Made by a program: the position numbers and the translations under genes. A model generated the notes under the pieces. That model was given only the letters and a program-made list of their open reading frames with translations. It had not been told where the DNA came from and did not search any database. From IMG/VR virus record IMGVR_UViG_3300032295_001004, positions 3,068 to 67,067 of that record: a DNA stretch of 64,000 bases; one strand, written 5' to 3'. Position 1 is the stretch's first letter. Every line of letters begins with the position of its first letter. Positions 11,009-30,092 of this stretch are shown here, piece after piece. Origin of the DNA: a virus (lineage: Duplodnaviria; Caudoviricetes).

Positions 11009-11011
11009 TTA

Positions 11012-13732: not shown

Positions 13733-13738
13733 AGTGAA

Positions 13739-13770
13739 TATTTATTAGGCATTATAATGAACTATAAATA
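13739..13770. promoter_or_regulatory. Divergent late-type promoter motifs
   Basis: ATAAATA on the minus strand at 13739-13745 before the 13732 start; TATAAATA on the plus strand at 13763-13770 (implies the true start may be ATG 13796). Confidence 0.55.
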
Positions 13771-15088
13771 TCAGTATAACTTTAAATTTACAAATATGTT
13801 AAGCTGGTTTAAACTTAAAAACTTCCCTCGTCAGATTTTTAAAAACGAAAGCATAATTAGCGATCGAGATTATTTAAACAGTCTACTCAAAGACGGAACC
13901 AATCCTATGATCATGCTGAATAAGGACGACTTTTCAGATATCATGAACGACTGGTTTGCTAGGAGAGGATTAATGATAGAAAAGTCTATGATGTTTTATC
14001 GATTCGAAGATGCAGAACCTCACATAGACCTTAAAGCAAAATCAACTGTTGCTAGTATTCAGCACAACTACGGAATCAATATTGAGTTCTTTGGAAAAGG
14101 TACAATGTCTTGGTATAAAACTCCTAAGTTAGAAGAAAAAGATATTATTAAAACTGTAGCAGGAACTCCATTTGTTAGATTTAAAAAAGAAAACATAGAG
14201 GAAATTGATTGTCTTTACAATGTTCGAGACCCTGTCCTAGTAAGAACTGATATCCCTCACTCAGTAGAAATGATAAAAGGTCCTAGATTAGTTGTTAGTA
14301 TTCGATTTAGAGAAATTGGACAAGATGATGCATGTTCATGGGAAAACATATTGTCTATATTAAAAGAAGATCTACAATCTAGATATGATTATAATTTAAC
14401 AATACCTGGAATGACTAGACCATTTGAATTATCTGCACTAGGATATATTTCATCGTTAGTGTTACCTGGCAAGATTTTTATAGAGGTAGGTAGCTGGATA
14501 GGGAGATCCAGCTATGCAATATCTAAGAATCTCCCACCTAAGTCAGTATTACATTGTATCGATACTTGGGAATACAATAACGATTACGGTAACAACTTAT
14601 TAGACATTTCTAAACAACATACTAAATCAAACTTTAATGACTACTATATATCTCATAAAGGTATGGAGTTATTAATTGAGAGATATCAAACCAGTAAAGA
14701 TTGGCTAGATATATGGAAGCAGTATACTTCCGATTGTAATAATATTGTGCCTTTTAAAATGCGATCAGAGGATTACGATATACCTGGAAATGTTGCCTGT
14801 GTTTACATAGATGGCAACCATTCAGCTGAAGGAGTATCTGCCGATCTTAAAAAATTCAATATATCTAATGATGTGTTACTATGTGGCGATGACTGTAGCA
14901 TGAAACATATTAATGGAGTAGTATATGCATTGTTAGACGGAGAGGTAAGAGAGAAAACATTAGGTGGTGGAAGAACAATACGGAGAACTCTTATTGTTCT
15001 TCCTAATTCTAAATTTTGGATTTTACTGCCAACTGAAGGCTACTGGGCTAATGTCTTTAAACTTGGAGATATTTTAAAATTATCATGA
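13757..15088 (+). CDS. Fusion: N-terminal 2OG-Fe(II) oxygenase-like domain plus C-terminal class I SAM methyltransferase
   Basis: EPHID...IPHSV...RLVVSIRF, then IEVGSWIGRS...YIDGNHS...LLCGDD. Confidence 0.65.
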   Translation: MNYKYQYNFKFTNMLSWFKLKNFPRQIFKNESIISDRDYLNSLLKDGTNPMIMLNKDDFSDIMNDWFARRGLMIEKSMMFYRFEDAEPHIDLKAKSTVASIQHNYGINIEFFGKGTMSWYKTPKLEEKDIIKTVAGTPFVRFKKENIEEIDCLYNVRDPVLVRTDIPHSVEMIKGPRLVVSIRFREIGQDDACSWENILSILKEDLQSRYDYNLTIPGMTRPFELSALGYISSLVLPGKIFIEVGSWIGRSSYAISKNLPPKSVLHCIDTWEYNNDYGNNLLDISKQHTKSNFNDYYISHKGMELLIERYQTSKDWLDIWKQYTSDCNNIVPFKMRSEDYDIPGNVACVYIDGNHSAEGVSADLKKFNISNDVLLCGDDCSMKHINGVVYALLDGEVREKTLGGGRTIRRTLIVLPNSKFWILLPTEGYWANVFKLGDILKLS

Positions 15089-15750
15089 GCAAACTTCCTT
15101 ATCATGTAATTCCGTTTAAATTTAACGAAGAATCACAAAAATTACTAGATGAAATCATACCGGACTACATAGTTCAATTTGAAAAGAATTCAAGTGAACG
15201 AGGTGGAAACTTAACATTAAATGACGACATGCGCCTGGACCTCGGAGCAGTAGGAGACCAGTTTAGAGAAATATTTAAAAAAGTCGGCGTTGTAAAATTC
15301 AAAATTCAATTGTTTGTCTATAGGAATAAACGGCCCCAAGACCCGGAATGGGCTATCGGTAATCCTCACATTGATCAATACGGAATATGGCCCGAGATTA
15401 CCGCTTTTAATAGATTCAGTGTGCTATATGCAGGAACACAAGATTACGAATACCAGTGGTGGGAACATATTGATCAGAACAATATGGAACAACTGTCATG
15501 GCATGAACATATTACCTATACAGGTCTTCCAAGTAAACGATTACAATTAAAAGGAGTAACTGATTTAGAAAGATGGAAGCAAATTGGAAAACCTAATGTG
15601 ACTGCTACTCACTTATCAGAGGTAGGTAAAACTGCTGGATTTGTTAAAGCAACTTGCTTACATAATCTAGCAATGAAACCTGGTAGAAGAGTTGTAGTCA
15701 GTGCTCGAATACCTCAACCGTGGGAAACTTTAGACTTTTCTAAATTATAA
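15085..15750 (+). CDS. Putative 2OG-Fe(II) oxygenase-like protein
   Basis: NPHID ... CLHNL ... RRVVVSAR. Confidence 0.55.
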   Translation: MSKLPYHVIPFKFNEESQKLLDEIIPDYIVQFEKNSSERGGNLTLNDDMRLDLGAVGDQFREIFKKVGVVKFKIQLFVYRNKRPQDPEWAIGNPHIDQYGIWPEITAFNRFSVLYAGTQDYEYQWWEHIDQNNMEQLSWHEHITYTGLPSKRLQLKGVTDLERWKQIGKPNVTATHLSEVGKTAGFVKATCLHNLAMKPGRRVVVSARIPQPWETLDFSKL

Positions 15751-16673
15751 TGATTAATCAAGCACTGTTCAACGAGGCACATAGTCTCGACACAATACAC
15801 GGAAATCATAAGATATTTGTTTCTTGGATGTTAGGCAATCAATGCACATACAAATGTAGCTACTGCAACGATGCATATAACGGAGGAAACCATAAATTTC
15901 CTAGTAAAGAAAAAATACTTGAAGTTTTTAATACATTTAATACACCTATTAAGGTCATGTTCTTAGGCGGGGAACCGACATATCATCCCGACTTTGAAGA
16001 AATAGTTTTAGGAAAACCTAACCATGTTACTATTCAATTAATTAGTAACGGGTCAAGGCCATTAGCTTTCTGGGAAAGAATATCACAACACCTAGATCTT
16101 ATCATACTTACATATCATATAGAATATGCAAAATTAGAAAGATTTAAAGAAATAGCATCTGCTTGTAAAAATAAATTAAGTCGTATAAACTTGCCGATGT
16201 TACCATCTAGATGGGACGAGTGTATGGAAGTATTTGTTAGTTTGACTGAGGCGGGCTTCAAAGTATCACCTAAGGTACTATTAGAAGACTTTGGTTATAC
16301 AGCAAACAAATACCTACAAGGTTATAACAAAGAGCAATTAGCTTGGATCAATTCCAATCAAGATGCCGCTGTACATACTATGAAAATGATTGCTCCTAGT
16401 GGAAAATCGTTTAAGCAAACAAATCCTTCAGAGTTACTGGCACAGAAACTTACTAATTTTAAAGGATGGGAGTGTGAGTCTCCTAAATGGAATGTAAGCA
16501 TTTTATCTGATGGTAGAGTATTTGATACTGCATGTAAACAAAGAAAACAATTAGGAACTATCGAAAGCGGGTTTAATCTAAATAGAAGTCCAGTTATATG
16601 CGAACAAAACTTTTGTTGGTGTTATAGTGATTTACATACTAAAAAAACAAGAGTACTAAATGATAACACATGA
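15750..16673 (+). CDS. Radical SAM enzyme with C-terminal twitch/SPASM-like Cys cluster
   Basis: CTYKCSYC, GGEPT, ISNG; C-terminal GWEC...DG.VFDTAC...ICEQNFCWC. Confidence 0.8.
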   Translation: MINQALFNEAHSLDTIHGNHKIFVSWMLGNQCTYKCSYCNDAYNGGNHKFPSKEKILEVFNTFNTPIKVMFLGGEPTYHPDFEEIVLGKPNHVTIQLISNGSRPLAFWERISQHLDLIILTYHIEYAKLERFKEIASACKNKLSRINLPMLPSRWDECMEVFVSLTEAGFKVSPKVLLEDFGYTANKYLQGYNKEQLAWINSNQDAAVHTMKMIAPSGKSFKQTNPSELLAQKLTNFKGWECESPKWNVSILSDGRVFDTACKQRKQLGTIESGFNLNRSPVICEQNFCWCYSDLHTKKTRVLNDNT

Positions 16674-17418
16674 AGATCTAGAAAAATTAGGTTCCGGATC
16701 TACAATACCTGATATTTTAATTACATCATTGATCGCAAATTCAAACTCGAAGATTAAAAATTTTTACGAGTTTGGTACTTGGGTAGGAGGATTTATTATA
16801 CTAGTTAATAGTCTAACTAATGATTTAAAATTCTATGCGTCGGAGACAATGGAGCATTTTAAATTTCAAGAACTAAAAAATACAAAACCTTTAGTTAATT
16901 GGGAAGAAATTATCGACCTAGAGTCTTTAGATGTGTATATCAAGAAAACATCTATAGATTATTGCCATAAAGAAATAAACTTAGATATGTTTATTAGCAA
17001 TGATAGTATGTTAAATAGTATTAAAGTTCCTTTAGATTTCATACACTTTGATTGTATGATTGACGGAGACAAAGTATATAACACAGCAAAAAATTTAATA
17101 GAAAACCATATGTCTGATCACGGAATATTTTGTGTAGACGACTTTATGCCAATTTGCGGTTTTAGAACTATAGCTATTTCAAAGCTAGTTACTGAAAACA
17201 AATTATTTCCTTTGTATCTTGGCCATAACAAAATGTTCTTTTGTAAAAGCCACGAAGCGCAATGGCAAGCTGCCAAAATGCTCTTAGCCTATGTTAAGAC
17301 CGCAGATTGTAAAAACAAGTTTTCTACATTATATAGCAGTCAAAATTTTCGACCATTAGAATTAAGTTTCAATGGAACTCGACATACACATTTCAGATAC
17401 GATCCAAGATGGAAATAA
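16660..17418 (+). CDS. Putative class I SAM-dependent methyltransferase
   Basis: YEFGTWVGG, DFIHFD, FCVDD motifs (Methyltransf_24-like). Confidence 0.55.
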   Translation: MITHEDLEKLGSGSTIPDILITSLIANSNSKIKNFYEFGTWVGGFIILVNSLTNDLKFYASETMEHFKFQELKNTKPLVNWEEIIDLESLDVYIKKTSIDYCHKEINLDMFISNDSMLNSIKVPLDFIHFDCMIDGDKVYNTAKNLIENHMSDHGIFCVDDFMPICGFRTIAISKLVTENKLFPLYLGHNKMFFCKSHEAQWQAAKMLLAYVKTADCKNKFSTLYSSQNFRPLELSFNGTRHTHFRYDPRWK

Positions 17419-17421
17419 ATT

Positions 17422-17979
17422 ATGCATAATTATAAAAGATTATTATCTGCACCTAAGACTACTGAAAAGTTAGTTACAATTGACATACAAAAACTAGCAA
17501 ATGAAATTTCTAAATACAATCTTGGAATACATTCCAAAGACGAGAAGTATATGAAATTTAGCCCGTTAGTCGATTTAAGATCGTTTATAATTAAAGAAGT
17601 TAACTGGGATTTTAAATGTAGCGGAGATTATACTAATGAATTACCAGAATTTGTTGCTATTGTAATGGATATCTTTAAATGTGATAAAGAATGGATTGAC
17701 AAGAAATTACAAAGAGCATACTATACTGAATTAAACCCAGGTAAAGTTGTAAAGCCTCATCATGATGGTAATCATAGATATTTTGATAAAGTTGACAGAT
17801 TTCATATCTACTTGTCAGAAGAAGATGCACAGATTGATCTTTACTGCAATAGTCAACGATTAGATTATAAACTAGGAGAGGTATGGAGATTTGACCTAGG
17901 GAAAGAACACTGGGCAAAAAATAACTCAACTAAACCTTTAAAAATGTTTGTATTTGATTTACTGAGAGATGATGAATGA
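17422..17979 (+). CDS. Aspartyl/asparaginyl beta-hydroxylase-like 2OG oxygenase
   Basis: LNPGKVVKPHHD...RFHIYL...EVWRFD..KEHWAKN...FVFD. Confidence 0.65.
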   Translation: MHNYKRLLSAPKTTEKLVTIDIQKLANEISKYNLGIHSKDEKYMKFSPLVDLRSFIIKEVNWDFKCSGDYTNELPEFVAIVMDIFKCDKEWIDKKLQRAYYTELNPGKVVKPHHDGNHRYFDKVDRFHIYLSEEDAQIDLYCNSQRLDYKLGEVWRFDLGKEHWAKNNSTKPLKMFVFDLLRDDE

Positions 17980-18530
17980 AATATGTTTACAAATTAAATT
18001 TGCCGCCTTTAGAAGAAGTTTTTTTAGATTCTGCATTTAGAATGTTTTTCTCAGAAATTCCAAAATATAGATTTATTTCTTATAAGTATTTTAAACCAGC
18101 AGACTTGTTTAAAGAAGAATTTTTAAATATCAACGGCAACGAATTTGATCTATCGACTGTTTATATAAAAAAAGACAGGGCTGGCGAAATACATGCTGAT
18201 ACTGGAAAAGATGCAAGTGTTAAGACATGGGGTATTAATTGGGTACACGGCGGCACCGGAATGTTAGAATATTGGGATTTCCTGCCTGAAGAAAAAAAGA
18301 TACAGCCTACTCAGACCAGTGGTTTGTTATATCAAATATACGACATCGATACTCCGGCTACTCATAGTTACGATATGGAACCAGGTTGTGCATATTTGGT
18401 AAATGCAGCAATACCTCATAGAGCGTCCGGTGTAGGAAATCGATTTGCAGTAACTCTGCGATCAACTAAAATGTTTCATTTAAGTTGGGAAGAAGTAGTA
18501 GGACAAATGAAAAATTTAATTAAGGAATAA
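17976..18530 (+). CDS. Putative 2OG-Fe(II) oxygenase-like protein
   Basis: EIHAD ... IPHRA ... RFAVTLR. Confidence 0.55.
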   Translation: MKYVYKLNLPPLEEVFLDSAFRMFFSEIPKYRFISYKYFKPADLFKEEFLNINGNEFDLSTVYIKKDRAGEIHADTGKDASVKTWGINWVHGGTGMLEYWDFLPEEKKIQPTQTSGLLYQIYDIDTPATHSYDMEPGCAYLVNAAIPHRASGVGNRFAVTLRSTKMFHLSWEEVVGQMKNLIKE

Positions 18531-18534
18531 AAGT

Positions 18535-19848
18535 ATGTTTTGTAAAACTGTTTGGCATGGTCTTTATATTTTACCGTACGGTGATGTAAGATTGTGTTCT
18601 ATTGCAACTAATTCTAAAAAAGAATTAGACAATAATGCCGCAAGAGATAAAGATGGAAATTTAATGAATATACTTACGCATAGTATTAAAGAAATTATGA
18701 ATTCCGATAAGCATTGTCAGGTCAGGGCATTAAATCAAAAAGATCCTAAAGCATGGAGTCCTCATTGTGATTGTTGCGAAGTTAGAGAACGAGTTACAAA
18801 CCACGAAAGAACACATAAAAATAAAAGTCGTAGAATTTATTTGAACGAGTTAATTCCAACAGAGGATACTGCCACTGAAGAAAATTATATAGGTAAAGCA
18901 ACAGAGGATGGAAAGATTGATTGGTATCCTGCTAGTTTAGATATCCGATTTGGAAACTTATGTAATCAAAAATGCATTATGTGTTCTCCAGAGTTTAGTA
19001 ACCTATGGTACGACGACTGGCACGAGTGGACCGGTGGGTTGAAGCAATTCCACAATGGAAGGCCTGTGACCTTAATTAAAAACGAACATAACAAATGGGT
19101 TGCACCTGATCAACTTCAATGGCACGAAGATCCAAGGTGGTGGCCAAAGTTTGAAGAAATGGCACCCCATCTAAAGCACATATATGTAACTGGCGGCGAA
19201 CCAATGGTTGTACCTGCTCACGATATTATGCTAGATAAACTAATAGAATGGGGACATGCTGAACATATTGTTATAGAATATGATACAAATGCCACAGTTG
19301 TAAATGACAAACTAGCAGAACGATGGAAACACTTTAAGATGGTTGACATACGAGTTAGTATGGATTCAACTAAAGACCAGTACGAAATAATTAGGTCTGG
19401 TGGCAAGTGGGAAAAGTTTGTAAAGAATGTAGAGAAATTAAAGCAGTACGAAAAAGAAAGTAACAAGCAGATTCGTGTATCTGCACTGACTACTTGTTTT
19501 CAGATGACTACAGCTCACACTATATTAAAAACTGAGGAATGGTGTAAATCTATAGGTGTTAATTTCCATATTAGATTCTTAGAAGGTCCTCCTCATCACA
19601 GAGTATTACATCTTCCTGTAGCGGCAAGAGACGAGCTACTAAAGATCTATAGCGAGTCTGATTCAGAGAAGGCAAAGATGATTATAAAGTTCTTAATTGA
19701 CAATAGAAATTCTACAGTTAGCAATCCAGAACATGTACATACATTTGTAAAGTTTATGAACTTCTTAGACGAAAGAAGAGGAACAGACTGGAAACCAGTT
19801 TTTCCTCAGTTAACTGATATGTTAACAAGACACGGATTTATGCCTTAA
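18535..19848 (+). CDS. Radical SAM enzyme with N-terminal SPASM-like Cys domain
   Basis: FCKTVW...GDVRLC...CDCC; LDIRFGNLCNQKCIMC; TGGEP. Confidence 0.8.
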   Translation: MFCKTVWHGLYILPYGDVRLCSIATNSKKELDNNAARDKDGNLMNILTHSIKEIMNSDKHCQVRALNQKDPKAWSPHCDCCEVRERVTNHERTHKNKSRRIYLNELIPTEDTATEENYIGKATEDGKIDWYPASLDIRFGNLCNQKCIMCSPEFSNLWYDDWHEWTGGLKQFHNGRPVTLIKNEHNKWVAPDQLQWHEDPRWWPKFEEMAPHLKHIYVTGGEPMVVPAHDIMLDKLIEWGHAEHIVIEYDTNATVVNDKLAERWKHFKMVDIRVSMDSTKDQYEIIRSGGKWEKFVKNVEKLKQYEKESNKQIRVSALTTCFQMTTAHTILKTEEWCKSIGVNFHIRFLEGPPHHRVLHLPVAARDELLKIYSESDSEKAKMIIKFLIDNRNSTVSNPEHVHTFVKFMNFLDERRGTDWKPVFPQLTDMLTRHGFMP

Positions 19849-20425
19849 CATTTAATAGGGGAGCTATTTCTTTAAATGGTTCCCCGAATCCGTATGTGAT
19901 TAGATATCTAGGAACAGTATTAGATGCTACTACAGCATGAATTCGATGAGTATCCACTAGATAGGCCTCTCCCTCTTTCATGATATAAGTGTGGTGACGA
20001 GCACGAAATGTATCGTATCTATTATCTATACCCATCTGTGTAAGAGATCCTGAGCTATTCTTAACACCTACATTAATACAACACATTCTTCCATCTTCAT
20101 CACGATGAGGAACAATGTCGCCTAGTGTCTTAATAAAATGGACTCGCTCTCGTTTCAATTTTAATTCAGGTTTAAATATTTCAGCAAACCTTTCTAGTAC
20201 AAGAGTAACCATGTCTCTTAGAACAGGGTGTTTGTCAGTGTGTCTAGTAAAACTAATTGATCCGCCTGAGTTACCTTCATTCCTATATTCCATCCAGCAA
20301 GGGTAGCTAGGAACTTCCATCTCTGCTCCGTACTTATGGACAACAATTTCCAATTCCTCAGATGCTTCGATAAACTTATTAAACTCAGCGGGCTCTATTA
20401 TTCGACCTAATGGTAATACTGACAT
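19838..20425 (-). CDS. Putative 2OG-Fe(II) oxygenase-like protein
   Basis: IVPHRD ... RIHAV ... RYLITY. Confidence 0.6.
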   Translation of the reverse strand: MSVLPLGRIIEPAEFNKFIEASEELEIVVHKYGAEMEVPSYPCWMEYRNEGNSGGSISFTRHTDKHPVLRDMVTLVLERFAEIFKPELKLKRERVHFIKTLGDIVPHRDEDGRMCCINVGVKNSSGSLTQMGIDNRYDTFRARHHTYIMKEGEAYLVDTHRIHAVVASNTVPRYLITYGFGEPFKEIAPLLNVKA

Positions 20426-20433
20426 ACGATTCC

Positions 20434-21228
20434 TTATTTTAAAAATGGTTTAAAGATATTACAAGGATCCCATTCCCACCATTTTCCGCTGACTGCTTTT
20501 CCAAAATCAAAACTTTTAGGATCATAATGATGATTGTTGTGCCATCCTTGACCCCATGCTGTGTATCCTAGAATTAGATTATTCTGACTTTGATCAGGTG
20601 TATCGAAATTACGATAACCTATAAGTCCTTTATAGTGACCGTATACATTAACTAAGTTATCTTGGGTAACTCCTATCATAGATACTAAACAACATACACC
20701 TAGTGCGAATTGCCAGTTGAATAAAGCAATTAGTAAGGGAACACCCCACAGTACTTTTAAATGATGATTGTGGAACCAAACATGGTTTGGTTTTCTTAAT
20801 AAGTCTACTGAATATTTGATGTTAACAGGGTTAGTGGTTTCTGTAATTTTATATTGCCAGCCCACAAATGCAGTTAGTTTATTGTAGGCTGCTGGACTAT
20901 GTAAGTCTGTTAATGTATCTGAATGAGGATGATGATATCCTCGGTGCAATGCTACCCAAAATATACTTGCACCCTGGCCCGATAATGCACCAAAAAATAA
21001 TAAAACATTTTCTTTCCATGTAGGCAGTTTATGAGTCCTATGACTAAAAACTCTATGGTATCCTACTGCAACACCTAACCCACATACCAGTACCCACAAG
21101 ATAAATGCAAACCATAGGTAATACAAAGGAATTACGCCAATTGCATAACATACAACTGCCGTAGTCCCTAATATCATAGCCGGTACAAATTGAAACCAAA
21201 ATGATTTACTAATTGTTTGCAACTTCAT
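20434..21228 (-). CDS. Membrane-bound fatty acid desaturase (delta-9/DesC-like)
   Basis: Three His boxes HRVFSH, HRGYHH, HNNHH plus hydrophobic segments. Confidence 0.88.
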   Translation of the reverse strand: MKLQTISKSFWFQFVPAMILGTTAVVCYAIGVIPLYYLWFAFILWVLVCGLGVAVGYHRVFSHRTHKLPTWKENVLLFFGALSGQGASIFWVALHRGYHHPHSDTLTDLHSPAAYNKLTAFVGWQYKITETTNPVNIKYSVDLLRKPNHVWFHNHHLKVLWGVPLLIALFNWQFALGVCCLVSMIGVTQDNLVNVYGHYKGLIGYRNFDTPDQSQNNLILGYTAWGQGWHNNHHYDPKSFDFGKAVSGKWWEWDPCNIFKPFLK

Positions 21229-21863
21229 ATGTTCCCACCAATAGGCAATGTTGTTCGATATTCCTGCTTTAGAAAGCTACATCTAATAACAGTATCTGCA
21301 GGCAATAAGGTTCTTTTAAACAATACTTCCCAATATTTTGCAAAGAAACATTTTGTTTGTTTAGGAATTATCATTTCGTCAAAGTATCCGTATCTATCAT
21401 TATTGTAATCACTGTATGTAAATTTTCGAAGTAACCTTGCGTGTTTTTTATTAACTAAGGTAAAGAACTTTAGTCTACCATTTGCTTCGTTATACTCAAT
21501 ACACTTATCTAACAACGCTTTTAATGTATTATTATCTCCGTCGCTTCTATAAAGTGTGCAATACCAAGACGGTTCTTCTTGACTTTCGTAAAATGTTGCA
21601 AAGGCAGTGACCTGACCTTCTTCGTTTATGTTTCCAAAAGCATGAAAAGTTTTTAAATCTTTAAGGTATGTGCTACAGAATGCACCATATAATTTTTCAT
21701 TAAAATCTATTTCTTCAACTTGTTGTCTATATTCCGGCTCTAATTTTTCATCTACATTTTTATAATAGTCCGCTGCATCATCTACACCCATGTATTTTCG
21801 TGTACTGTAGAATAAATTTTTAACTGCCTCTCGATGAGACCTATCCAATTTTACAATGTTCAT
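21225..21863 (-). CDS. Hypothetical protein, possible GNAT-fold acyltransferase
   Basis: beta-rich core (FGNINEEGQVTAFATFY), then LKALLDKCIEYNEANG; 4-nt overlaps on both sides. Confidence 0.4.
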   Translation of the reverse strand: MNIVKLDRSHREAVKNLFYSTRKYMGVDDAADYYKNVDEKLEPEYRQQVEEIDFNEKLYGAFCSTYLKDLKTFHAFGNINEEGQVTAFATFYESQEEPSWYCTLYRSDGDNNTLKALLDKCIEYNEANGRLKFFTLVNKKHARLLRKFTYSDYNNDRYGYFDEMIIPKQTKCFFAKYWEVLFKRTLLPADTVIRCSFLKQEYRTTLPIGGNI

Positions 21864-22771
21864 AAACTGTTATCTTCCATTAATTTAGAAATAGGAATAC
21901 CATCTAAACTAGGTTCAAGGCGCCTAACCAACGGTAACCCTAATTGTACAAACGCTTCCGCATTGAATGCCAGCAGTTTTTCAAATCCGTGAGTTTTCTT
22001 TTTAAATCTTATATCAGGATATAGCTGTCGTAAAATTCTATTCTTACTAGACACTGATGCCAGTTTATAATTGTACCTAGTGTGTATTAATTCTTGTATT
22101 TCAAAATCTTCTAAGTAATACATCATCATTTCTGGGGTATAACTAAACCATTCATTAACTAAAGGTATCTTAAACTTTTCGCTAAAACGCATTGCACTGG
22201 CGTCTTCATTTTCTCGGAAACAATGATACCACCAGCTATCTGTAGGTGTAACCTGCCTTCTTAGAAATTGTTCTCCGCCCATTACAGCAGGTAATCCTAA
22301 TTTCTTTATTTGATTATATACCATAAGATATGTAATTTGACTACAATCAATCTCTTTGGCAAATTCAGCAGCTTCACCTGACCAGAAAAAGTCTTCAACA
22401 TCAAAATCTATAATTTCTAATTGTAAGTCTAGTTCTTTAGCAATAGCAATTGCTTCTTCTACATCTGGCAAATTGTAGTCATCTTTAAATTTAAGCATGA
22501 AGCATTTAGGCTTATGCCCAATTTCTAAAAAATTTCTAACAACAATTTCACTATCAGTGCCGCCACTGAGCAGAACAACTAGATCCTTACCATACTCAGA
22601 TAATACACAATCTGCTGTTCTTCTTAGCTCTTGGCGCCAACTACTAGTTCTATAATAATCTTTGTCAATCGTTCCTGCAAACACTTCATACTTTTCGTAT
22701 GGTGTTTCTCTATATCCAAATTTTCTTCCACCTATAGTATAGTAAAGGTGGTTATTATATGTATAGTTCAT
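21860..22771 (-). CDS. PP-loop (asparagine synthase C-domain-like) adenylating enzyme
   Basis: LVVLLSGGTDSE PP-loop, AVMGGE; paralog of 7395-8594. Confidence 0.7.
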   Translation of the reverse strand: MNYTYNNHLYYTIGGRKFGYRETPYEKYEVFAGTIDKDYYRTSSWRQELRRTADCVLSEYGKDLVVLLSGGTDSEIVVRNFLEIGHKPKCFMLKFKDDYNLPDVEEAIAIAKELDLQLEIIDFDVEDFFWSGEAAEFAKEIDCSQITYLMVYNQIKKLGLPAVMGGEQFLRRQVTPTDSWWYHCFRENEDASAMRFSEKFKIPLVNEWFSYTPEMMMYYLEDFEIQELIHTRYNYKLASVSSKNRILRQLYPDIRFKKKTHGFEKLLAFNAEAFVQLGLPLVRRLEPSLDGIPISKLMEDNSL

Positions 22772-23004
22772 TGCATTAAATCAATCAAATGTTTAACTGT
22801 AACAACAGCGGTTTTTGAATCAATAGTTTCTTTGCCGGTCACATCTTCATAATACATTTGTAATTCAACCGCATCGAGACTATCAACACCTATGTCTAGT
22901 AATCTAGTATCTTCGGTGATTAGATCCGGAACTTTACCTTTTAACTCTAGAAGTGCTTTTTTTAAAAACTCAATTTTATCTGTCTGCGTAGTTAATTCAA
23001 TCAT
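22768..23004 (-). CDS. Acyl carrier protein
   Basis: 78 aa acidic protein with LLDIGVDSLDAVEL (GxDSL phosphopantetheine site) and TVKHLID. Confidence 0.85.
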   Translation of the reverse strand: MIELTTQTDKIEFLKKALLELKGKVPDLITEDTRLLDIGVDSLDAVELQMYYEDVTGKETIDSKTAVVTVKHLIDLMQ

Positions 23005-23539
23005 TTTGTTCTCTTTTATATTCAGCTACAAACTGTACAGAATTATTTACTACCTTAGTACCTATGGGTTTAAATTTCTTGTAATCAGCTGGCCACTGAT
23101 TAAACATACCTGCGGGTTTGTTATTTGAAAGATTTACAAGTGCATCGTATATCGGTTTATTATAATGATTGCAAGTTATCCAGATAGAGTTGTATGCTTT
23201 CGATTCTTCAATAATCTTTGGAAGAATATATTTTGCCATATTGTATGATGTTCTAAACTTCAACGGAATATAAGCTCGAACCAGAGCCAATACTGTATTG
23301 TCATCTAACCTGTTCCATCCTGCACTACCTGCATACTCTCCAGTTTCAGTTTGCATAACAAAATAGTTTCCTATTTCAAACCTACCATGTTCTAGTAGAT
23401 AAAACAGATTAGCATGATCATCTTTAAAATATGGATGATAGTTTATAGCAAGATCGTGTTCGGGAAGATCCTCTAATCCTTGCTGTAATAATTTAACAAT
23501 CGGATTATTACTTAAATCTTTTATCGAATGGACAATCAT
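22997..23539 (-). CDS. GNAT-like acyltransferase
   Basis: YFVMQ..GEYAGSAGW...LVRAYIPLKFR (motif A-like). Confidence 0.5.
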   Translation of the reverse strand: MIVHSIKDLSNNPIVKLLQQGLEDLPEHDLAINYHPYFKDDHANLFYLLEHGRFEIGNYFVMQTETGEYAGSAGWNRLDDNTVLALVRAYIPLKFRTSYNMAKYILPKIIEESKAYNSIWITCNHYNKPIYDALVNLSNNKPAGMFNQWPADYKKFKPIGTKVVNNSVQFVAEYKREQND

Positions 23540-23545: not shown

Positions 23546-23592
23546 TATTTAATTCATAAATAGTTGACACAGATGCTAAGTGATACTATACT
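23546..23592. promoter_or_regulatory. Divergent control region: minus-strand TAAATA for the ACP operon; plus-strand ATAAATA and sigma70 promoter for the tRNA-like RNA
   Basis: TATTTA at 23546-23551; ATAAATA at 23556-23562; TTGACA(23564)-N17-TATACT(23587). Confidence 0.7.
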
Positions 23593-23598
23593 AGTTAT

Positions 23599-23708
23599 AC
23601 GGTCGTGAGTGGAATATGGCAGACCTCCATTTTGTTGCAATACAAGATCGGGACGGGGCGAAGACTTAGTCACAGCCCTTGTAGGTTCAAGACCTACCGA
23701 CCGTACCA
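23599..23708 (+). ncRNA. 110-nt tRNA-Leu-like RNA with enlarged anticodon and variable arms
   Basis: Acceptor ACGGTCG/CGACCGT, A73, CCA; D-loop ...TGGCAGA; T-arm GTAGG-TTCAAGA-CCTAC. About 55 nt lie between the D and T arms, with no canonical 7-nt anticodon loop. Confidence 0.7.
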
Positions 23709-23739: not shown

Positions 23740-23822
23740 GCCCTGGTGGTGAAATTGGTAGACACGCTGGTCTTAGAAGCCAGTGCGAGAGCGTGACGGT
23801 TCGAGTCCGTCCTAGGGCACCA
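23740..23822 (+). tRNA. tRNA-Leu(UAG)
   Basis: GCCCTGG/CTAGGGC acceptor, CTGGT-CT-TAG-AA-GCCAG, variable arm, TTCGAGT, CCA. Confidence 0.93.
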
Positions 23823-23828
23823 AATACA

Positions 23829-24533
23829 ATGAGCTACGATCGTAGAATAGAACTAATACATATTTTGCTAAGCCGGACTAACGGCAAGGTATATCAAGGT
23901 CCGTTTAAAGGGATGAAAATTTTACCCAAATGGAGTTGGGGTGACGGTGATGTTGGTGGTAAGGTTCTAGGTGTTTACGAGTCAGAATTGTTTCCTGCTA
24001 TCGAAACTGCTATTGCAAATAATCCAGACTTAGTTTTAAACATTGGCTGTGCTGAAGGATTCTACGGAATTGGATTGGCAATCCGTACAGGTCGTAAAAC
24101 TATTTTGTTTGATCTTATGGAATCTGCAATAAGTATTGCCAGAGAGAACGCACAGGCCAATGGTGTAAACAATATTCTGTTCAGCAACGAATGCACCTCA
24201 GAAGTTTACCAACACTACCTTAATCAAGCAAACAATCCGTTAGTAGTTATGGACTGTGAGGGCGCAGAAGATCAATTATTAGATTTATCTGTAATTCCTG
24301 CACTATTAAAGACTTCAATTATTGTCGAAAGCCATGATTGCAATATCCCCGGGTTGACCAACAAGTTAATCGAACGATTTAAAGATACTCATAATATTCA
24401 AATTATTGAGCAAGGTTCAAAGAATCCCTATACTGAAATTACTCGAGACTTTTCAGATTGGGATAAAATGTTATTAAGTTGTGAGTTTAGACCTAGTACA
24501 ATGAGCTGGTTATACTTGACACCTAAAACTTAA
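23829..24533 (+). CDS. Class I SAM methyltransferase-like protein
   Basis: VLNIGCAEGFYG glycine motif, VVMDCEGAE (FkbM-like). Start moved to ATG 23829 because the track start overlaps tRNA-Leu. Confidence 0.6.
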   Translation: MSYDRRIELIHILLSRTNGKVYQGPFKGMKILPKWSWGDGDVGGKVLGVYESELFPAIETAIANNPDLVLNIGCAEGFYGIGLAIRTGRKTILFDLMESAISIARENAQANGVNNILFSNECTSEVYQHYLNQANNPLVVMDCEGAEDQLLDLSVIPALLKTSIIVESHDCNIPGLTNKLIERFKDTHNIQIIEQGSKNPYTEITRDFSDWDKMLLSCEFRPSTMSWLYLTPKT

Positions 24534-24655: not shown

Positions 24656-25306
24656 ATGCTAGACACAATTTGCGATGTACTTAAAGCCAGCTACGATAAA
24701 GGCTGGATCACAACACGGGATGGCAACGCCAGTTTCCGTAGACCCTCAGAAAATCATTTCTATATCACTCCTAGTGGTGTTCGTAAGCAACACCTAAATG
24801 CCGAACTAATGATCAAGTTAGCATTTACAGAGGAAGAAGAAACAGCAGTCAAAGCCGATGTCAAGATGCCCTGGCATAATATTGCTCGAGTAGATGACGA
24901 ATACCAGCGCAGAATTTCAGGCCTTGGTCCAAGTGGTGAATTACCTATGCACTACCTGTTGCAACAAGCAACTAAAGAAAATAGAGTAATACTGCACCTA
25001 CACCCAACATATATTATTTCAGCTATGTACGCAGGTCTTGACCTGCAATACATTGCACAAGAATTTCCAGAGATCAATAGGTATACTAGGGTAGGACCTG
25101 CACTACCACAAATACCTCCCATTAGTGCCGCATTGGCATTAGATGTTGAAAAAGCATTTAATCACAACGATGGCAAGATTGATTTTGATATTATAGGCAT
25201 GGACAGGCATGGAGTTGTAGCAATTGCCGACAATGCATGGACTGCCTTTGAACATGTTGAACGATTAGAACATGTTTGCCAAATTGTTTTAGGTGCTAAT
25301 TTATGA
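24656..25306 (+). CDS. Class II aldolase/adducin-family protein
   Basis: DGNAS, ITPSG, ELPMH, HLHP, RHG metal-binding motifs. Confidence 0.8.
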   Translation: MLDTICDVLKASYDKGWITTRDGNASFRRPSENHFYITPSGVRKQHLNAELMIKLAFTEEEETAVKADVKMPWHNIARVDDEYQRRISGLGPSGELPMHYLLQQATKENRVILHLHPTYIISAMYAGLDLQYIAQEFPEINRYTRVGPALPQIPPISAALALDVEKAFNHNDGKIDFDIIGMDRHGVVAIADNAWTAFEHVERLEHVCQIVLGANL

Positions 25307-26157
25307 AAAAAATATACGACTGTTTTACATTTTACAACGAATTCGACTTGCTTGAATTAAGATTAGAAGAGCATTGGGATTATGTTGATTACTTTGTAAT
25401 TGCAGAAGCCAACAAGACTCACCAAGGTAGAGACAAGCCCTTCTATCTTGCAGACAATTGGGATAGGTATAAAAAGTATCACGAAAAGATTATCCACATT
25501 AAAGTGGAAGATATGCCTACTGATTCTAATGCATGGGTTTTAGAAAACTTTCAACGAAATGCGTTAACACGAGGATTAACAGATGCTGCTCCGGATGACA
25601 TTGTTGTTATCTCTGACTGCGACGAAGTTATGCGTGGAGAGACATTTGAATTAATGAGAGAAGATGACAAACATATTTTGTGGATTTGTCGTGCTCCATT
25701 GTTCTACTTCAAACTAAACTATCTAATGGTTCGTCCTCGTTCTTATTGGGTCAATGCCATGGCCACACTAAGAAAACACTTAACAAGTCCACAGGATCTA
25801 AGAAACGCAACACACTGGGCGTCTGCACAGAAAGAAGACCTTGAGGACGATAAGGTAATGACTATTCAACATGCAGGATGGCATTTTACTTACTTAGGTA
25901 ATACAGACCACGCTAAGAACAAGTTGTTGAACTTTGCTCATCAAGAGTCTAATCACTTAGCGGAAACAGTTGATGTTGAAGAATTTATGAAACTTAAAAA
26001 AGGCATTGACAAAAACAATCCTAACGAAAGTTTTGAATATATCGAATTAGATGATTACTTTCCTGAAACAGTAGTAGAAGATCCAGTTCGCTGGAAAGAT
26101 TTTATTGCAGTAGGAGAATGTGTAAACATTAAAGGCTTCGTGCCAAGTTGGGAATAA
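25303..26157 (+). CDS. Glycosyltransferase family 17 (beta-1,4-GlcNAc transferase-like)
   Basis: [34 protein letters not shown]. Confidence 0.85.
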
Positions 26158-26158
26158 A

Positions 26159-27316
26159 ATGACACAAAAATTTAGATTTCATATTTTGGGCTTGCCCCAT
26201 ACAGTAACAAACAAAGAATACAACGCCTGTGCTTACACTCAAAAGGTATTAAAATTTGGCAAGATGATGAAGGCATTAGGACACTATGTTATTCATTACG
26301 GTCACGAAGATAGTGTGCTAGAGTGTGACGAACATGTAACTGTTACCACAAACAAAGATTTAGAAATTGCTTATGGTAATTATAACTGGCGTGAAAACTT
26401 CTTTAAGTTTGATATGAATGATCATGCTTATCAAACATTCTTTAAAAATGCAATCCGTGAAGTAGGACTTCGTAAGCAACCCAAAGATTTTATTCTTCCA
26501 TTTTGGGGATCGGGTGTTCGTCCTATTTGCGATGCTCACCCCGACTTAATCTGTGTTGAACCAGGTATTGGTTACGCAGGTGGTCACTGGGCTCGTTGGA
26601 AGATCTTTGAAAGCTATGCTATCTACCACGCATACTACGGTCTTGAAGCTGTGGGAAGTTGTAAACAAGATTGGTATGACGCAGTTATTCCCAACTACTT
26701 TGATCTCGACGACTTTGAATACAGTGAAGAAAAAGAAGATTACTTCTTATACCTAGGTCGTGTATATAGTGGCAAAGGAACTAACATTGCTATTGAAGTT
26801 ACTAAGGAATTAAATGTTCCTTTAAAGATTGCAGGGCAAAACAATTTAAAAGACATGGGCTACGATAAAACTCCTGACCATGTTGAGTTCATTGGATATG
26901 CAGATGTTCCCACTCGCAAGAAGTTAATGAGCAAGGCCAAGGCTGCGTTTACACCAAGTATGTATGTTGAGCCGTTTGGCGGAGTACAGATCGAAATGTT
27001 ATTAAGTGGTACACCTACAATCACAACAGACTGGGGTAGCTTCAGCGAAAATAATGTACACGGGGTAACAGGTTACCGTTGCCGCACATTTGAACAGTTC
27101 AAGTGGGCCGCGCAAAATATTGGAAACATTAAACCATCCGACTGTCGAGACTATGCTGTTAAAAACTTTAGTCTAGAGAGAGTAGGCAAAATGTACGAAG
27201 AATATTTCCAGATGGTATACGATGTACACAGTGGCAATGGTTGGTATCAACCTCATCCAGAGCGTGAAAATCTAGACTGGTTACGCAAATATTACCCACC
27301 TATGGAACCTAAATGA
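26159..27316 (+). CDS. GT-B glycosyltransferase (GT4-like)
   Basis: [31 protein letters not shown] (ExF..E motif). Confidence 0.85.
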
Positions 27317-28251
27317 AAAGAGTAGTTTTCTATTTTGAGCCCAATTGGGCGTTCGGTACAGTTCATTATGAACTGTTCAAATACCTATGGGCTGAGGGAT
27401 TTAATTGTCAATTGCTTCCTTGGAACAAAAGCTACACCAGAGAAGAAATGTACGAGCTTAATGCAACTACAGATCTATTTGTAACTACTCCCCACGGATG
27501 GCGCTTCCTCGGCTACGATTATGCAACTGTTAGACCAGAACAATGTGTTATCATCAGTCATGCTAAGTTAGATATGACTGAATTAATTCATTACCACGGT
27601 ACGGACGATTTTAACAAATTTTATAAGTACGGTGCTGTTAGTGATTGGCTTGTTGGTGTTAGTAAAGAGTTAGGTATCCAGCGACCTGCCCAACTTGCAC
27701 CGGTTGCTGTAAATTGTAATACATTTTACAGTCCTCCAAATAGTTCGTTGAGAATTGTTGGATATACAGGATCATTCCATGCCAAACAAGAGTTTAGCGA
27801 CGATCAAGTTGCAAGTCAACTTGCACAGCCCAAGTATCACAAACGAGGTTGGTTAGTGAAACAAGCTGTTGAAATGGCTGGCTTAGAGTTCAAAGTAGCT
27901 CAACCTTATCATAATAGCTATATTACTATGCCAGGATTCTACAAAGGAATTGATGCTGTTATTTGTGCCAGTACTGAAGAAGGTGCAGGGTTGCCTGTAC
28001 TAGAGGGCGGTGCTGCCGGTAAATTAGTAATTGGCACTAATGTAGGGCATTGGGAACAACGAGTTGGCACAAAAGGTGGAGAAGTTGTACCAATTCCTGA
28101 AGCTGAATTTCTAGAAAAAACTGTGGAAATCCTACATTATTATAAAGATAATCCGTTAAAATACATTGAAAGATGTATGCAAATTCAAGAACATGCTAAG
28201 AGCTACGACTGGTCGCATGTTATTGACAAATGGGTAGACATTTTAAGTTAA
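27313..28251 (+). CDS. GT-B glycosyltransferase
   Basis: [27 protein letters not shown]. Confidence 0.75.
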
Positions 28252-28313
28252 TTAAGTATGTAGTTAACCTAGTATTTTTTTTAGATAACTAAGATTATGT
28301 GCTGAGGTGCTAC

Positions 28314-29045
28314 ATGAATACTGTAAGATGTTTCGATTGGTCAACCCTAGATAGAGAACTCCTAGCAGAGATGTTGTTAATATCAACTACGGATTTTGTG
28401 AATAAGTCGTATACACCCACCGCACTGACAAAAAGAGTTAGGCATCAGTTTAATTTCTTTCAAGTTCCTATTAAATTTGCCACTACAAAAAGCCCAGAAA
28501 CTAAACTTAAAGAAGTTTGGGTCGGTGGGTTATACGACAGCGGGTTAGATCAGGATGGTCAAGCTGCAATAACTATACGGCTACAGTACAACACTGACGC
28601 TAAGAAAATTACTTTAACAAAAAAGAATTTTAAACGAATTGCCTTGGGAATTGCCGATACTTTACTTCACGAAGTAATACATACTAGACAATATCGTAGA
28701 CGAAATTACAAAGAAATTGTGGGCTACACTAGCACCGCAGAGTTTTCAAAACAAATAAAAGAACAAACTTATCTCGGACACAGTGACGAAATAGATGCGT
28801 ATGCATTTAATATTGCGTGTGCGCTGTCAGATAAGTTTAACAAAGACCATGAAAAGATAGTACAATATCTTAATGCTGATTTAAAAGACAAACGATTTAA
28901 GAAAAATGGTTATACCATGTATCTTGAAACTTTTGATCACGATCACAGACACAGAGTTATCAAAAAACTTAAAAAGAAAATTATGTATTACCTTCCTTAT
29001 ACAACATTAGGGAAGCCGTATAAAACTTCAGACTGGTTAAAATGA
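28314..29045 (+). CDS. HExxH-containing hypothetical protein
   Basis: LLHEVIHTRQY ... YLGHSDEIDAYAFNIA. Confidence 0.6.
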   Translation: MNTVRCFDWSTLDRELLAEMLLISTTDFVNKSYTPTALTKRVRHQFNFFQVPIKFATTKSPETKLKEVWVGGLYDSGLDQDGQAAITIRLQYNTDAKKITLTKKNFKRIALGIADTLLHEVIHTRQYRRRNYKEIVGYTSTAEFSKQIKEQTYLGHSDEIDAYAFNIACALSDKFNKDHEKIVQYLNADLKDKRFKKNGYTMYLETFDHDHRHRVIKKLKKKIMYYLPYTTLGKPYKTSDWLK

Positions 29046-29776: not shown

Positions 29777-29801
29777 CATAGAGTAACTTGTATGTTATAC
29801 T
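29773..29801 (+). promoter_or_regulatory. Sigma70-type promoter
   Basis: TTGACA-N17-TATACT. Confidence 0.8.
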
Positions 29802-29807
29802 GTTAGT

Positions 29808-30038: not shown

Positions 30039-30092
30039 ATAAACTGATCAGTTAATTTAGATAATTACAATTATAATTTCTTAAGGAATAGA

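Follow-up and report, generated by a model that had tools for sequence, protein, structure and literature searches.

A large uncultured phage carries a tightly coupled operon of six genes (g1 to g6), which encode a GNAT, an acyl carrier protein (ACP), a PP-loop ATPase, a second GNAT, an SCD-type membrane desaturase and a cupin with an HxD...H motif. The PP-loop enzyme g3, the GNAT g4 and the desaturase g5 form an invariant core in related phages, and the GNAT g1 and the ACP constitute an optional pair. Tentatively, we favor a phage-specific lipid-tailoring module of two sub-modules and an oxygenase, whose product in infected cells would probably be an acyl compound that is unsaturated and amide-linked, similar to a lipoamino acid. 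The initial annotation had not recognised the architecture as a described phage pathway; likewise, no published description of the module was found in the literature. No cellular homologues of the module were found.

Operon layout and protein families

The ORF listing and a reading of the minus-strand sequence revealed six consecutive minus-strand ORFs at positions 19838-23539 of the window, the 64,000-nucleotide stretch of DNA analyzed here. As read from the sequence, the g1/g2 junction is ATGATTGA, an 8-nt overlap, and the g2/g3, g3/g4 and g4/g5 junctions are each formed by ATGA, a 4-nt overlap. All six genes are genuine, and their translation is coupled. Both the overlaps (8, 4, 4 and 4 nt) and the 8-nt gap behind AGGA match the layout annotated initially, and all family calls made at that time (ACP, PP-loop enzyme, desaturase, oxygenase and two GNAT folds) proved right. 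According to the ORF listing, the stop of g6 overlaps a convergent radical SAM-SPASM gene by 11 nt.

Table 1. Genes of the operon and the g5-g6 junction, with positions in the window
Feature	Position	Strand	Basis
g1, GNAT-fold acyltransferase, 180 aa	22997..23539	-	AF2 fold, Foldseek, VIA; non-canonical CoA P-loop
g2, acyl carrier protein, 78 aa, pI 4.5	22768..23004	-	PF00550, phrog_5934; predicted phosphopantetheine serine Ser42
g3, stand-alone PP-loop ATP pyrophosphatase, 303 aa	21860..22771	-	SGGTDSE, weak PP-loop-region profile matches
g4, GNAT-fold acyltransferase, 212 aa	21225..21863	-	AF2 fold, Foldseek, VIA; obligate neighbor of g3
g5, membrane di-iron fatty-acid desaturase, SCD1/Delta9 type, 264 aa, pI 9.2	20434..21228	-	PF00487, SCD1 structures, His boxes
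g5-g6 junction	20426..20436	-	TAAGGAATCGTATG: TAA stop, AGGA overlapping the stop, 8-nt spacer, then ATG (read from sequence)
g6, cupin-type Fe(II) oxygenase, 195 aa	19838..20425	-	H107-x-D109...H163, predicted iron triad

No match was found for g1 in Pfam, NCBIfam or PHROG, nor for g4 in Pfam. Structure prediction and Foldseek nevertheless gave the GNAT fold that had been claimed for both of these flanking unknowns. AF2 models displayed GNAT topology (pLDDT 91.4 for g1 and 79 for g4); g1 was matched by Foldseek against the PDB with E 2.6e-6 (probability 1.0) and by VIA with Z 13.2 across 137 aa, g4 with E 1e-7 and Z 14.3 across 150 aa. The nearest matches of g4 in BFVD are uncharacterised proteins of uncultured Caudovirales. 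The two GNATs share no sequence similarity (hhalign probability 1%). In g1 the CoA P-loop R/Q-x-x-G-x-G/A is replaced by R96-x-x-Y99-x-M101 (39 homologues), whereas g4 retains R106-x-x-G109.

The ACP scored 22.7 bits against PF00550 (cut-off 20.8), matched phrog_5934 (acyl carrier protein) and reached about E 1e-5 with NCBIfam ACP models, under their cut-offs. Within its motif GVDSLDAVEL, D41-S42-L43 is invariant in seven homologues; the DSL serine is kept, in agreement with the intact ACP reported before. The desaturase, likewise described as intact with three His boxes, is above the PF00487 cut-off (E 7e-10, 39.5 bits versus 29.7), and all of 45 sequences share nine histidines (58, 63, 95, 99, 100, 198, 230, 233 and 234). 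It matched the NCBIfam DesA-family desaturase under its cut-off (E 2.6e-15) and aligned to the SCD1 structures 4ymk (E 3e-11) and 4zyo (E 2e-10) with every His box; hydrophobic segments lie ahead of box 1 and between boxes 2 and 3. The triad of g6 is invariant in 10 homologues. Its match to Pfam Asp_Arg_Hydrox is weak (E 0.09), and hhalign aligned it (probability 79%, E 1.6e-5) to a neighboring-gene cluster called Asp_Arg_Hydrox by Pfam.

The SGGTDSE motif of g3 is invariant. Its family comprises 1098 mostly viral clusters at E<1e-3 among 1.84 billion representatives. Pfam gave weak matches in the PP-loop region to tRNA_Me_trans, Asn_synthase and QueC; among 60 family members QueC matched 29 and Asn_synthase 13. 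A PDB profile search returned just Cap9, MJ0690, MnmA, TtuA, NadE, QueC and LarE (E 0.005-0.8), Cap9 being the best real sequence match (E 0.005). The carboxylate-amidating or -ligating PP-loop enzymes of the QueC family and the asparagine-synthetase type (QueC, Cap9/QatC, NadE, AsnB and beta-lactam synthetase) resemble g3 in the SGGxDS PP-loop, in a stand-alone domain without glutaminase and in a likely carboxylate adenylation followed by amine attack. However, only some 70 residues at and around the PP-loop are similar, g3 has neither the QueC zinc cysteines nor the AsnB N-terminal domain, and its family, unlike these enzymes, is virus-restricted and GNAT-paired. The family lacks a conserved Cys cluster (just 35 of the 60 members have C143), QueC, Asn synthase and NAD synthase are closest to it, and the QueC-family Cap9 is described as acting in nucleobase-protein conjugation (10.1101/2025.04.06.647259); these points argue for amide chemistry over sulfur transfer. 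The likely role of g3 is to adenylate a carboxylate and to make an amide from it.

Conservation among related viral loci

The same genes are found again, in synteny and with 35-70% amino-acid identity, in a comparison set of 71 non-redundant related viral loci, which places the operon far beyond chance. Two gene orders were observed, g1-(ACP)-g3-g4-DES and DES-g3-g4-AspH-TauD, with the core adjacent in both. The core genes stay together: g4 adjoins g3 in 68 of the 71 loci, and the desaturase adjoins this pair, on either side, in 61. A distant phage (L014) and a phage with a fused PP-loop gene (L089) again combine GNAT, PP-loop, desaturase and AspH-like genes, and in distant relatives of g3 (P0225, P0245, P0262) the PP-loop protein is joined to a Pfam GNAT domain. 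The synteny in 71 loci together with the gene fusions shows that the genes form a functional unit. Thus, from the six-gene architecture described initially the core g3-g4-desaturase stands as fixed, but the g1/ACP pair is optional and g6 varies.

The ACP is present in 30 and absent from 41 of the loci; g1 is found in 47, including 26 of 28 well-covered ACP-bearing loci and some without a phage ACP. One phage carries a g1-ACP fusion (L004:3680-4447). Relatives that have an ACP encode it inside the module, and their whole records contain no other PF00550 match. In contrast, no ACP was found in the whole 524-kb record, rated complete by CheckV, of a relative having g1-g3-g4-desaturase. Across the 71 loci the ACP co-varies with g1 and not with g3. 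Loss of the P-loop motif is a reported hallmark of the carrier-protein-dependent GNATs SbzI and FeeM (PMC11685415), and g1, as partner of the ACP, is likely to be carrier-protein dependent too.

Direct orthologues of g6 occur in 12 of the 71 loci, and members of three related cupin clusters (c7, c18 and c38; hhalign 91-97%) often lie nearby; judged from this distribution, g6 is a variable, putative accessory tailoring enzyme and no fixed member. More distant PP-loop-GNAT fusions (L087, L088) lie in loci without a desaturase, so that the pair may originally have had a role outside lipid chemistry.

The ketosynthase, AMP-ligase and PPTase noted as absent from the window are absent from the whole 67-kb record too (PF00109, PF00501 and PF01648). 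Together with Spt-type PLP enzymes, they were also not found linked to the module in five long relatives, and the record itself contains no Spt-type enzyme. With no chain-building enzymes encoded, the acyl chain must come from the host. The operon lies in a tightly packed island with two B12 radical SAMs, a radical SAM-SPASM enzyme, a GARS-like ATP-grasp and AspH-like cupins; tRNA genes flank it, and collagen-like tail-fiber genes are encoded in the same window.

Alternative readings and the proposed pathway

An ACP-centered assembly line, with the PP-loop enzyme loading the ACP, had been proposed initially. JamA/JamB/JamC and TtuA/TtuB/TtuC are terminal-alkyne cassettes whose activating enzyme is an ANL acyl-ACP synthetase. 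Like the phage genes, they combine, in a small stand-alone cassette, an activating enzyme that uses ATP with a dedicated ACP and a membrane-bound enzyme of the desaturase family; here all three lie within one coupled operon. In a comparable thiotemplate cassette g3 would take the place of the ANL synthetase and charge the phage ACP with a free acid, the desaturase would act on the tethered chain, and the GNATs would offload it onto an amine. The operon indeed has no AMP-ligase for ACP loading, and g1, fused to the ACP in one phage, lacks the CoA P-loop. Since the PP-loop enzyme LarE converts an adenylated carboxylate into a thioester-type intermediate, such loading is chemically conceivable, but we know of no PP-loop acyl-ACP synthetase. 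Unlike the Jam and Ttu cassettes, the operon has a PP-loop ATPase in place of an ANL enzyme, an optional ACP and two added GNATs, and its desaturase is SCD1-like, with no support for acetylenase activity. More than half of the loci, and also the complete 524-kb relative, lack the ACP, which goes with g1, and g3 is paired or fused with GNATs. A dedicated ACP-loading role of g3 is therefore unlikely, and amide formation in concert with its GNAT is the likelier one. The assembly line as first drawn is not supported, and a thiotemplate cassette appears unlikely.

Somewhat less probable still is protein or peptide tailoring, in which the module would lipidate and amidate a phage structural protein (for example the collagen-like fibers encoded nearby) or a ribosomal peptide, with the AspH-like, radical SAM-SPASM, B12 radical SAM and ATP-grasp enzymes acting on the same polypeptide. 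These neighbors are also typical of peptide tailoring, which counts against a lipid product, and the island contains no scaffold-building enzyme. Selidamides are ribosomal peptides lipidated from acyl-ACP by GNAT maturases. RiPP lipopeptides are also listed among GNAT products (PMC11685415). However, the genes of the island are packed too tightly to accommodate a precursor-peptide gene, membrane SCD-type desaturases are not known to take part in such pathways, and elsewhere the core trio has quite different neighbors.

The genes might also be a loose collection of AMGs, the desaturase alone raising host membrane unsaturation and the GNATs, PP-loop enzyme and ACP being unrelated. The usual substrates of SCD-type enzymes are CoA esters or intact lipids, and g5 could therefore act on bulk host lipids; several related loci carry two to four additional desaturase paralogues. 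A role of this kind was proposed for the DesC-like vFAD of cyanophages, whose Delta9 desaturases are described as stand-alone AMGs on membrane glycerolipids (PMC5776448). As a phage-encoded membrane Delta9-type desaturase with histidine boxes, vFAD resembles g5, which is only distantly related and, in contrast, operon-locked with a PP-loop enzyme and GNATs. Among 50,697 GenBank phage records g5 had no close match (best 24-29% identity, no cyanophage at E<1e-5). Translational coupling, the g1-ACP and PP-loop-GNAT fusions, and a desaturase that stays beside g3-g4 in 61 loci despite rearrangement make this reading improbable. Very improbable is modification of tRNA or DNA by a TilS/QueC/MnmA-related PP-loop enzyme and a GNAT (as in TmcA and Elp3) with the desaturase link secondary: tRNA genes flank the operon, g3 weakly matches tRNA_Me_trans, QueC, ATP_bind_3 and ThiI models, and PP-loop-GNAT fusions occur in desaturase-less phage loci with aminoacyl-tRNA synthetases, but all the profile matches fall within the ATP-binding motif, neither a Zn or Fe-S cysteine motif nor a tRNA-binding domain is present in g3, and g3 is inherited along with an ACP and a membrane desaturase.

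For the lipid-tailoring module that we favor, partial parallels exist. In the ornithine-lipid/aminolipid pathway, with the N-acyltransferase OlsB, OlsA and the LpxO-like hydroxylase OlsC, the acyl-ACP-dependent OlsB produces a lipid with an amide linkage, and hydroxylation of this lipid by Asp/Asn-hydroxylase-family (PF05118) enzymes follows. PF05118-type cupins also surround the phage module; however, the Ols pathway has no PP-loop enzyme and no desaturase, and neither OlsB-type models nor PlsC-type OlsA gave a match. FeeM with its ACP FeeL (N-acyl amino acid synthase) and SbzI with SbzG are carrier-protein-dependent GNAT acyltransferases (PMC11685415), which resemble g1 in the GNAT fold, the dedicated carrier protein and the replaced R/Q-x-x-G-x-G/A motif, and the operon's proposed product in making an amide. 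In contrast, g1 also occurs without a phage ACP and shares no detectable sequence similarity with them; the top structural matches of g1 (Foldseek, VIA) did not include FeeM or SbzI, which speaks neither for nor against a relationship. No operon enzyme has a characterised close relative, and because both GNAT folds match generic acetyltransferases only, acyl-chain length and donor are deduced from one motif and gene linkage.

In the proposed pathway, the phage ACP would be primed by a host PPTase, and in ACP-less loci host acyl-ACP would substitute, a fatty-acyl chain being supplied either way. Lacking the CoA-binding glycines, g1 would move the chain from the carrier protein to an amine or hydroxyl acceptor. 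By chemistry of the QueC/NadE/AsnB/Cap9 type, g3 may adenylate a carboxylate of the acceptor or intermediate to yield an amide, and g4, its fixed partner, would add an acyl group, probably from a CoA thioester. The different donors are suggested because g1 has R-x-x-Y-x-M and g4 keeps R-x-x-G. The desaturase would put a cis double bond into the membrane-embedded chain, and g6 and the many neighboring AspH/TauD-like oxygenases may hydroxylate the product, which at best guess is a lipoamino-acid-like unsaturated N-acyl lipid.

Gene layout and enzyme families

The six minus-strand open reading frames proposed in the initial annotation (g1–g6) were confirmed by the ORF table and by the sequence. 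They are joined by one 8-nt overlap (ATGATTGA), then by three ATGA overlaps of 4 nt each; g5 and g6 are separated by an 8-nt gap, and an AGGA ahead of this gap overlaps the g5 stop codon. Scans for sigma-70-type promoters and terminators inside the operon stayed at chance level, with nothing above shuffled controls.

Features of the operon and its surroundings (positions in the window)
Feature	Position	Strand	Description
g1	22997-23539	-	GNAT-fold protein
g2	22768-23004	-	ACP
g3	21860-22771	-	PP-loop enzyme
g4	21225-21863	-	GNAT-fold protein
g5	20434-21228	-	membrane desaturase
g6	19838-20425	-	putative Fe(II)/2OG cupin with H-x-D...H triad
Second PP-loop protein, 399 aa, very divergent	7395-8594	+	no Pfam match; weak g3-profile match
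Tailoring island, upstream of operon	9458-19848		dense gene block
Spacer, operon start to tRNA-Leu	23564-23708	+	best sigma-70-like site of the region
SAM methyltransferase, longest ORF	23793-24533	+	GTG start inside tRNA-Leu (23740-23822)
Sugar-related genes, downstream	24656-31969	+	class II aldolase, GT17-like and two GT1 glycosyltransferases, NAD-dependent epimerase/dehydratase
Two large collagen-repeat tail-fibre-like proteins	55016-58959	+	weak match to collagen triple-helix proteins of Synechococcus phages S-CAM7 and ACG-2014f

Acyl carrier proteins (ACPs) are acidic helical proteins of about 80 amino acids, in which a D-S-L attachment motif opens helix II. Judged by its sequence, g2 is such a protein: it matches PF00550 with 22.7 bits (cut-off 20.8), has a pI of 4.47, and its DSL phosphopantetheine motif is invariant among seven homologues. 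The initial annotation had reported no ketosynthase, AMP-ligase or phosphopantetheinyl transferase (PPTase) in the window, and this holds across the whole 67-kb record; a PPTase is also absent from five long relatives. Since enzymes for building the chain or loading the ACP are lacking, a host PPTase would have to prime Ser42, the predicted phosphopantetheine site, and the chain would have to be supplied by host fatty-acid synthesis. De novo ceramide or viral sphingolipid synthesis was considered and rejected, because PF00155, the family of serine palmitoyltransferase-type PLP enzymes, had no match in the record or in the five long relatives.

The desaturase g5 matches PF00487 (39.5 bits, cut-off 29.7) and aligns to SCD1 (4ymk, E 3e-11) with the boxes HRxxSH, HRxxHH and HNNHH in register. 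Nine histidines are invariant in 45 homologues, and hydrophobic segments lie at 9-61, 75-94 and 159-193. We assign g5 to the membrane di-iron desaturases of the SCD1/Delta9 class. Among GenBank phages only three distant matches were found, in records of Pelagibacter phage Mosig and 'Acinetobacter phage MD-2021a'. In g6 the triad H107, D109 and H163 is invariant; the protein scores 13 bits against the Asp/Asn hydroxylase family (PF05118, cut-off 22.6) and is weakly related (hhalign probability 79%) to a cluster of neighbouring-gene proteins that is PF05118-positive.

Neither g1 nor g4 matched any sequence family. AlphaFold2 models built from alignments of 39 and 36 homologues, respectively, had GNAT topology with pLDDT values of 91 and 79. 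Both structures match hundreds of solved GNATs (g1: Foldseek E 2.6e-6, VIA Z 13.2, rmsd 2.8 over 137 aa; g4: Foldseek E 1e-7, VIA Z 14.3, rmsd 2.7 over 150 aa). In these models the fold of both proteins is the beta1-alpha1-alpha2-beta2-4-alpha3-beta5-alpha4-beta6-7 arrangement of GNATs. Thus all family calls of the initial annotation were borne out, including the two GNATs guessed by eye. The two proteins are not detectable paralogues (hhalign probability 1%). They also differ at the CoA pyrophosphate motif R/Q-x-x-G-x-G/A, whose position after beta4 was placed by AlphaFold2 secondary structure, without superposition. In g1 the motif is replaced by R96-x-x-Y99-x-M101, with position 99 being Y or F in 37 of 39 homologues and position 101 being M in 33, whereas g4 partly keeps it as R106-x-x-G109-x-N111. 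According to a published structural study, the R/Q-x-x-G-x-G/A motif, by which the CoA diphosphate is gripped, has been lost from SbzI and FeeM, two carrier-protein-dependent GNATs (PMC11685415). The family-wide replacement makes g1 resemble these enzymes; g4, unlike them, retains R-x-x-G and is more likely to use a CoA thioester.

The motif SGGTDSE of g3 is invariant in nine close homologues and nearly so in 60 distant ones, which places the protein in the PP-loop ATP pyrophosphatase superfamily, characterised by SGGxDS within a Rossmann-like HUP domain. Five PP-loop Pfam families match it weakly, only around this motif, and among 60 family members QueC led with 29 matches, followed by Asn synthase (13) and NAD synthase (8). 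The best solved relatives in a PDB profile search were Cap9, MJ0690, MnmA, TtuA, NadE, QueC and LarE (E 0.005-0.8). Against QueC (PF06508) g3 scores 16.6 bits, under the cut-off of 22. The zinc-binding Cys cluster of QueC is absent, the sole partly conserved cysteine being C143 (35 of 60 members); this absence argues for carboxylate-to-amide chemistry rather than sulfur transfer or QueC proper. In AsnB, beta-lactam synthetase and lasso cyclase an N-terminal Ntn (glutaminase-like) domain precedes a synthetase domain that spans some 350 aa at the C-terminus, whereas g3 has 303 aa, of which just about 60 precede the PP-loop. Its match to Asn_synthase (19.4 bits, cut-off 21) covers profile positions 20-126 of 354, and no AsnB-type chain occurred among the PDB profile matches. 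PADLOC returned only a weak QueC PP-loop match and no sign of a defence system, and a review of the QueC family makes no mention of members linked to GNATs or desaturases.

The g3 family comprises 1098 clusters (50% identity, E<1e-3) and is overwhelmingly viral. Three distant members (P0225, P0245, P0262) are fused at either end to Pfam-recognisable GNAT domains; the extra domains of five other fused relatives (P0193, P0194, P0173, P0224, P0200) had no match to Pfam or to g1 or g4 profiles. The second PP-loop protein of the window matches the g3 profile around the PP-loop (E 2e-5 to 2e-6). Additional PP-loop paralogues, in two clusters of neighbouring-gene proteins (c11, c36), occur in related loci (hhalign 95% and 86% to g3). 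Two pattern scans with g3 alignments, which are insensitive to distant relatives, found no g3 relative in 185,579 cellular species genomes, and single-sequence tblastn detected nothing in 50,697 GenBank phage records. The broad g3 alignment (A5) holds no stretch conserved enough for a scan of viral contigs. Within the limits of pattern-based cellular scans, we class g3 and g4 as an orphan, putatively virus-restricted PP-loop/GNAT pair at the heart of the module.

Conservation of the module in related phages

Scans of IMG/VR with the desaturase and a g3 alignment, together with contig look-ups, yielded 71 non-redundant loci, each with an orthologue 53-71% identical to g3. A profile search of all ORFs placed g4 directly after g3 in 68 of the 71 loci and the desaturase beside this pair in 61. 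Fewer loci had g1 (47), the ACP (30) or a direct orthologue of g6 (12). Two gene orders dominate, g1-(ACP)-g3-g4-desaturase and desaturase-g3-g4-AspH-TauD, the latter without g1 or ACP. Hence, the operon consists of a fixed core (g3, g4 and g5), an optional feeder (g1 and g2) and variable oxygenases (g6 and relatives). Many unannotated neighbours are more g6-related cupins, PP-loop paralogues or a g4-like GNAT. The more distant phages L014 and L089 again group a GNAT gene and the PP-loop gene with one or two desaturase genes and with AspH/PhyH-type oxygenase genes; two loci bearing PP-loop-GNAT fusions contain no desaturase. Several loci (L003, L008, L010, L049 and others) carry two to four further desaturase paralogues with 27-33% identity to g5, and in L010 a Rieske protein is encoded directly upstream of g1. 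The L088 locus, from a distant phage, encodes a fragment of a class I aminoacyl-tRNA synthetase as well as a seryl-tRNA synthetase close to its fused PP-loop-GNAT gene.

Where enough flank was available, 26 of 28 ACP loci also contained g1, and g1 occurred without the ACP in 20 loci. In locus L004, g1 and the ACP form a single ORF of 255 codons. Given the natural fusions, binding would be expected within both pairs, g1-ACP and g3-g4. The loss of the P-loop motif, this fusion and the co-occurrence make g1 a likely client of the ACP. In whole-record scans the ACP, where present, was the sole PF00550 match and lay within the module; the whole records of two core-bearing relatives, one of 524 kb and rated complete, had no PF00550 match. 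These distributions bear on the ACP-centred assembly line proposed in the initial annotation, with the PP-loop enzyme as ACP loader, in the manner of the terminal-alkyne cassettes JamABC and TtuABC. There, a dedicated ACP is obligatory and is loaded by an ANL acyl-ACP synthetase. Here, however, the ACP is dispensable and tracks g1 instead of g3, PF00501 has no match in the 67-kb record, and in relatives its sole matches lie >45 kb from the module. A thiotemplate cassette of this kind is therefore unlikely. We class the module as kin to small carrier-protein/GNAT acyl-tailoring cassettes.

Genomic setting

The IMG/VR viral record that contains the 64-kb window is 67 kb long and has a CheckV completeness of 19%. 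Five longer module-bearing relatives span 136-524 kb and are rated 35-100% complete (CheckV), which suggests full genomes of about 350 kb or larger. Among cultured phages, T4-like cyanomyoviruses come nearest, with about 29-36% identity in the one baseplate/peptidase protein used for this comparison. Six tRNA genes and collagen-like tail-fibre genes are present in the window. The plus strand carries almost all genes, the six-gene block being an inverted unit with negative GC skew to match. In the spacer ahead of the operon, the sigma-70-like site TTGACA-17-TATACT (23564-23592) has 11 of 12 matches, and neither ARAGORN nor Rfam called a tRNA in this spacer. Because the Pfam domain of the SAM methyltransferase starts no earlier than about residue 75, the true start of this gene probably lies further downstream. 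GT1 genes, as found downstream of the operon, are again close to the module in some related loci (L007, L010, L015, L019).

The island upstream encodes a GARS-like ATP-grasp protein between two B12-binding radical SAMs, and further a methyltransferase, a radical SAM, an Asp/Asn-hydroxylase-like cupin and a radical SAM-SPASM enzyme; no scaffold-building gene was found in it. The operon is surrounded by radical SAM-SPASM, B12 radical SAM, ATP-grasp and AspH-like genes, which would suit a role in lipidating and tailoring a peptide or protein of the phage. However, the packed island leaves no fit for a precursor gene, and to our knowledge membrane desaturases have no role on peptides, which makes this reading quite unlikely. 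Carbapenem- or clavam-like chemistry, which likewise combines a PP-loop synthetase, 2OG oxygenases, B12 radical SAMs and a GNAT, served as an analogy only and is an unlikely reading, as a desaturase has no place in that pathway.

A candidate pathway and its alternatives

Phages carrying single lipid genes, such as desaturases, are known. The six genes could be unrelated auxiliary genes, the desaturase standing alone as does vFAD, the DesC-like Delta9 desaturase of cyanophages (PMC5776448), but translational coupling, synteny and gene fusions contradict this and leave it with little probability. Modification of tRNA or DNA, for which only the similarity of the PP-loop motif speaks, is most improbable.

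From the observed families, linkage and motif differences we infer an order of steps, an acceptor and a product. The model that we prefer, as possible rather than probable, is the synthesis of an unsaturated, amide-linked lipid resembling lipoamino acids. An acyl chain would be drawn from host fatty-acid synthesis onto the ACP primed by a host PPTase, and g1 would transfer the acyl group of acyl-ACP onto the amine or hydroxyl of an acceptor. Subsequently, g3 would adenylate a carboxylate, leading to an amide, and g4 may add another acyl group. The SCD-type enzyme would desaturate the chain embedded in the membrane, and the cupins would hydroxylate the product. A more specific form of this lipid model, which we regard as somewhat doubtful, is a virus-restricted path in which a PP-loop ATPase, rather than an ANL or ATP-grasp enzyme, and its fixed GNAT partner would make a new class of unsaturated N-acyl amide lipids. 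Their synthesis, optionally fed by an ACP/GNAT pair from the phage, would be confined to phage-infected cells, and late in infection the lipids would serve to remodel the virion or the envelope of the host.

Full-text literature searches found no published account of this gene combination in phages, nor of any phage pathway in which several enzymes transfer acyl groups with the help of a carrier protein. The present analysis adds the division into core and feeder, the two kinds of fusion (g1-ACP and PP-loop-GNAT), the lack of an ACP from the entire genome of some module carriers and the contrast between the P-loops of the two GNATs. Dozens of large uncultured phages share the module, and for each of its enzymes a close relative of characterised function is lacking. 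As the genes are small and, save the desaturase, encode soluble proteins, they are directly testable by heterologous expression and lipidomics. If the lipid is indeed made only in infected cells, this would represent a new virus-driven membrane chemistry in bacteria, akin in spirit to the sphingolipids of algal viruses, and the large orphan pair of PP-loop and GNAT enzymes would gain a function.
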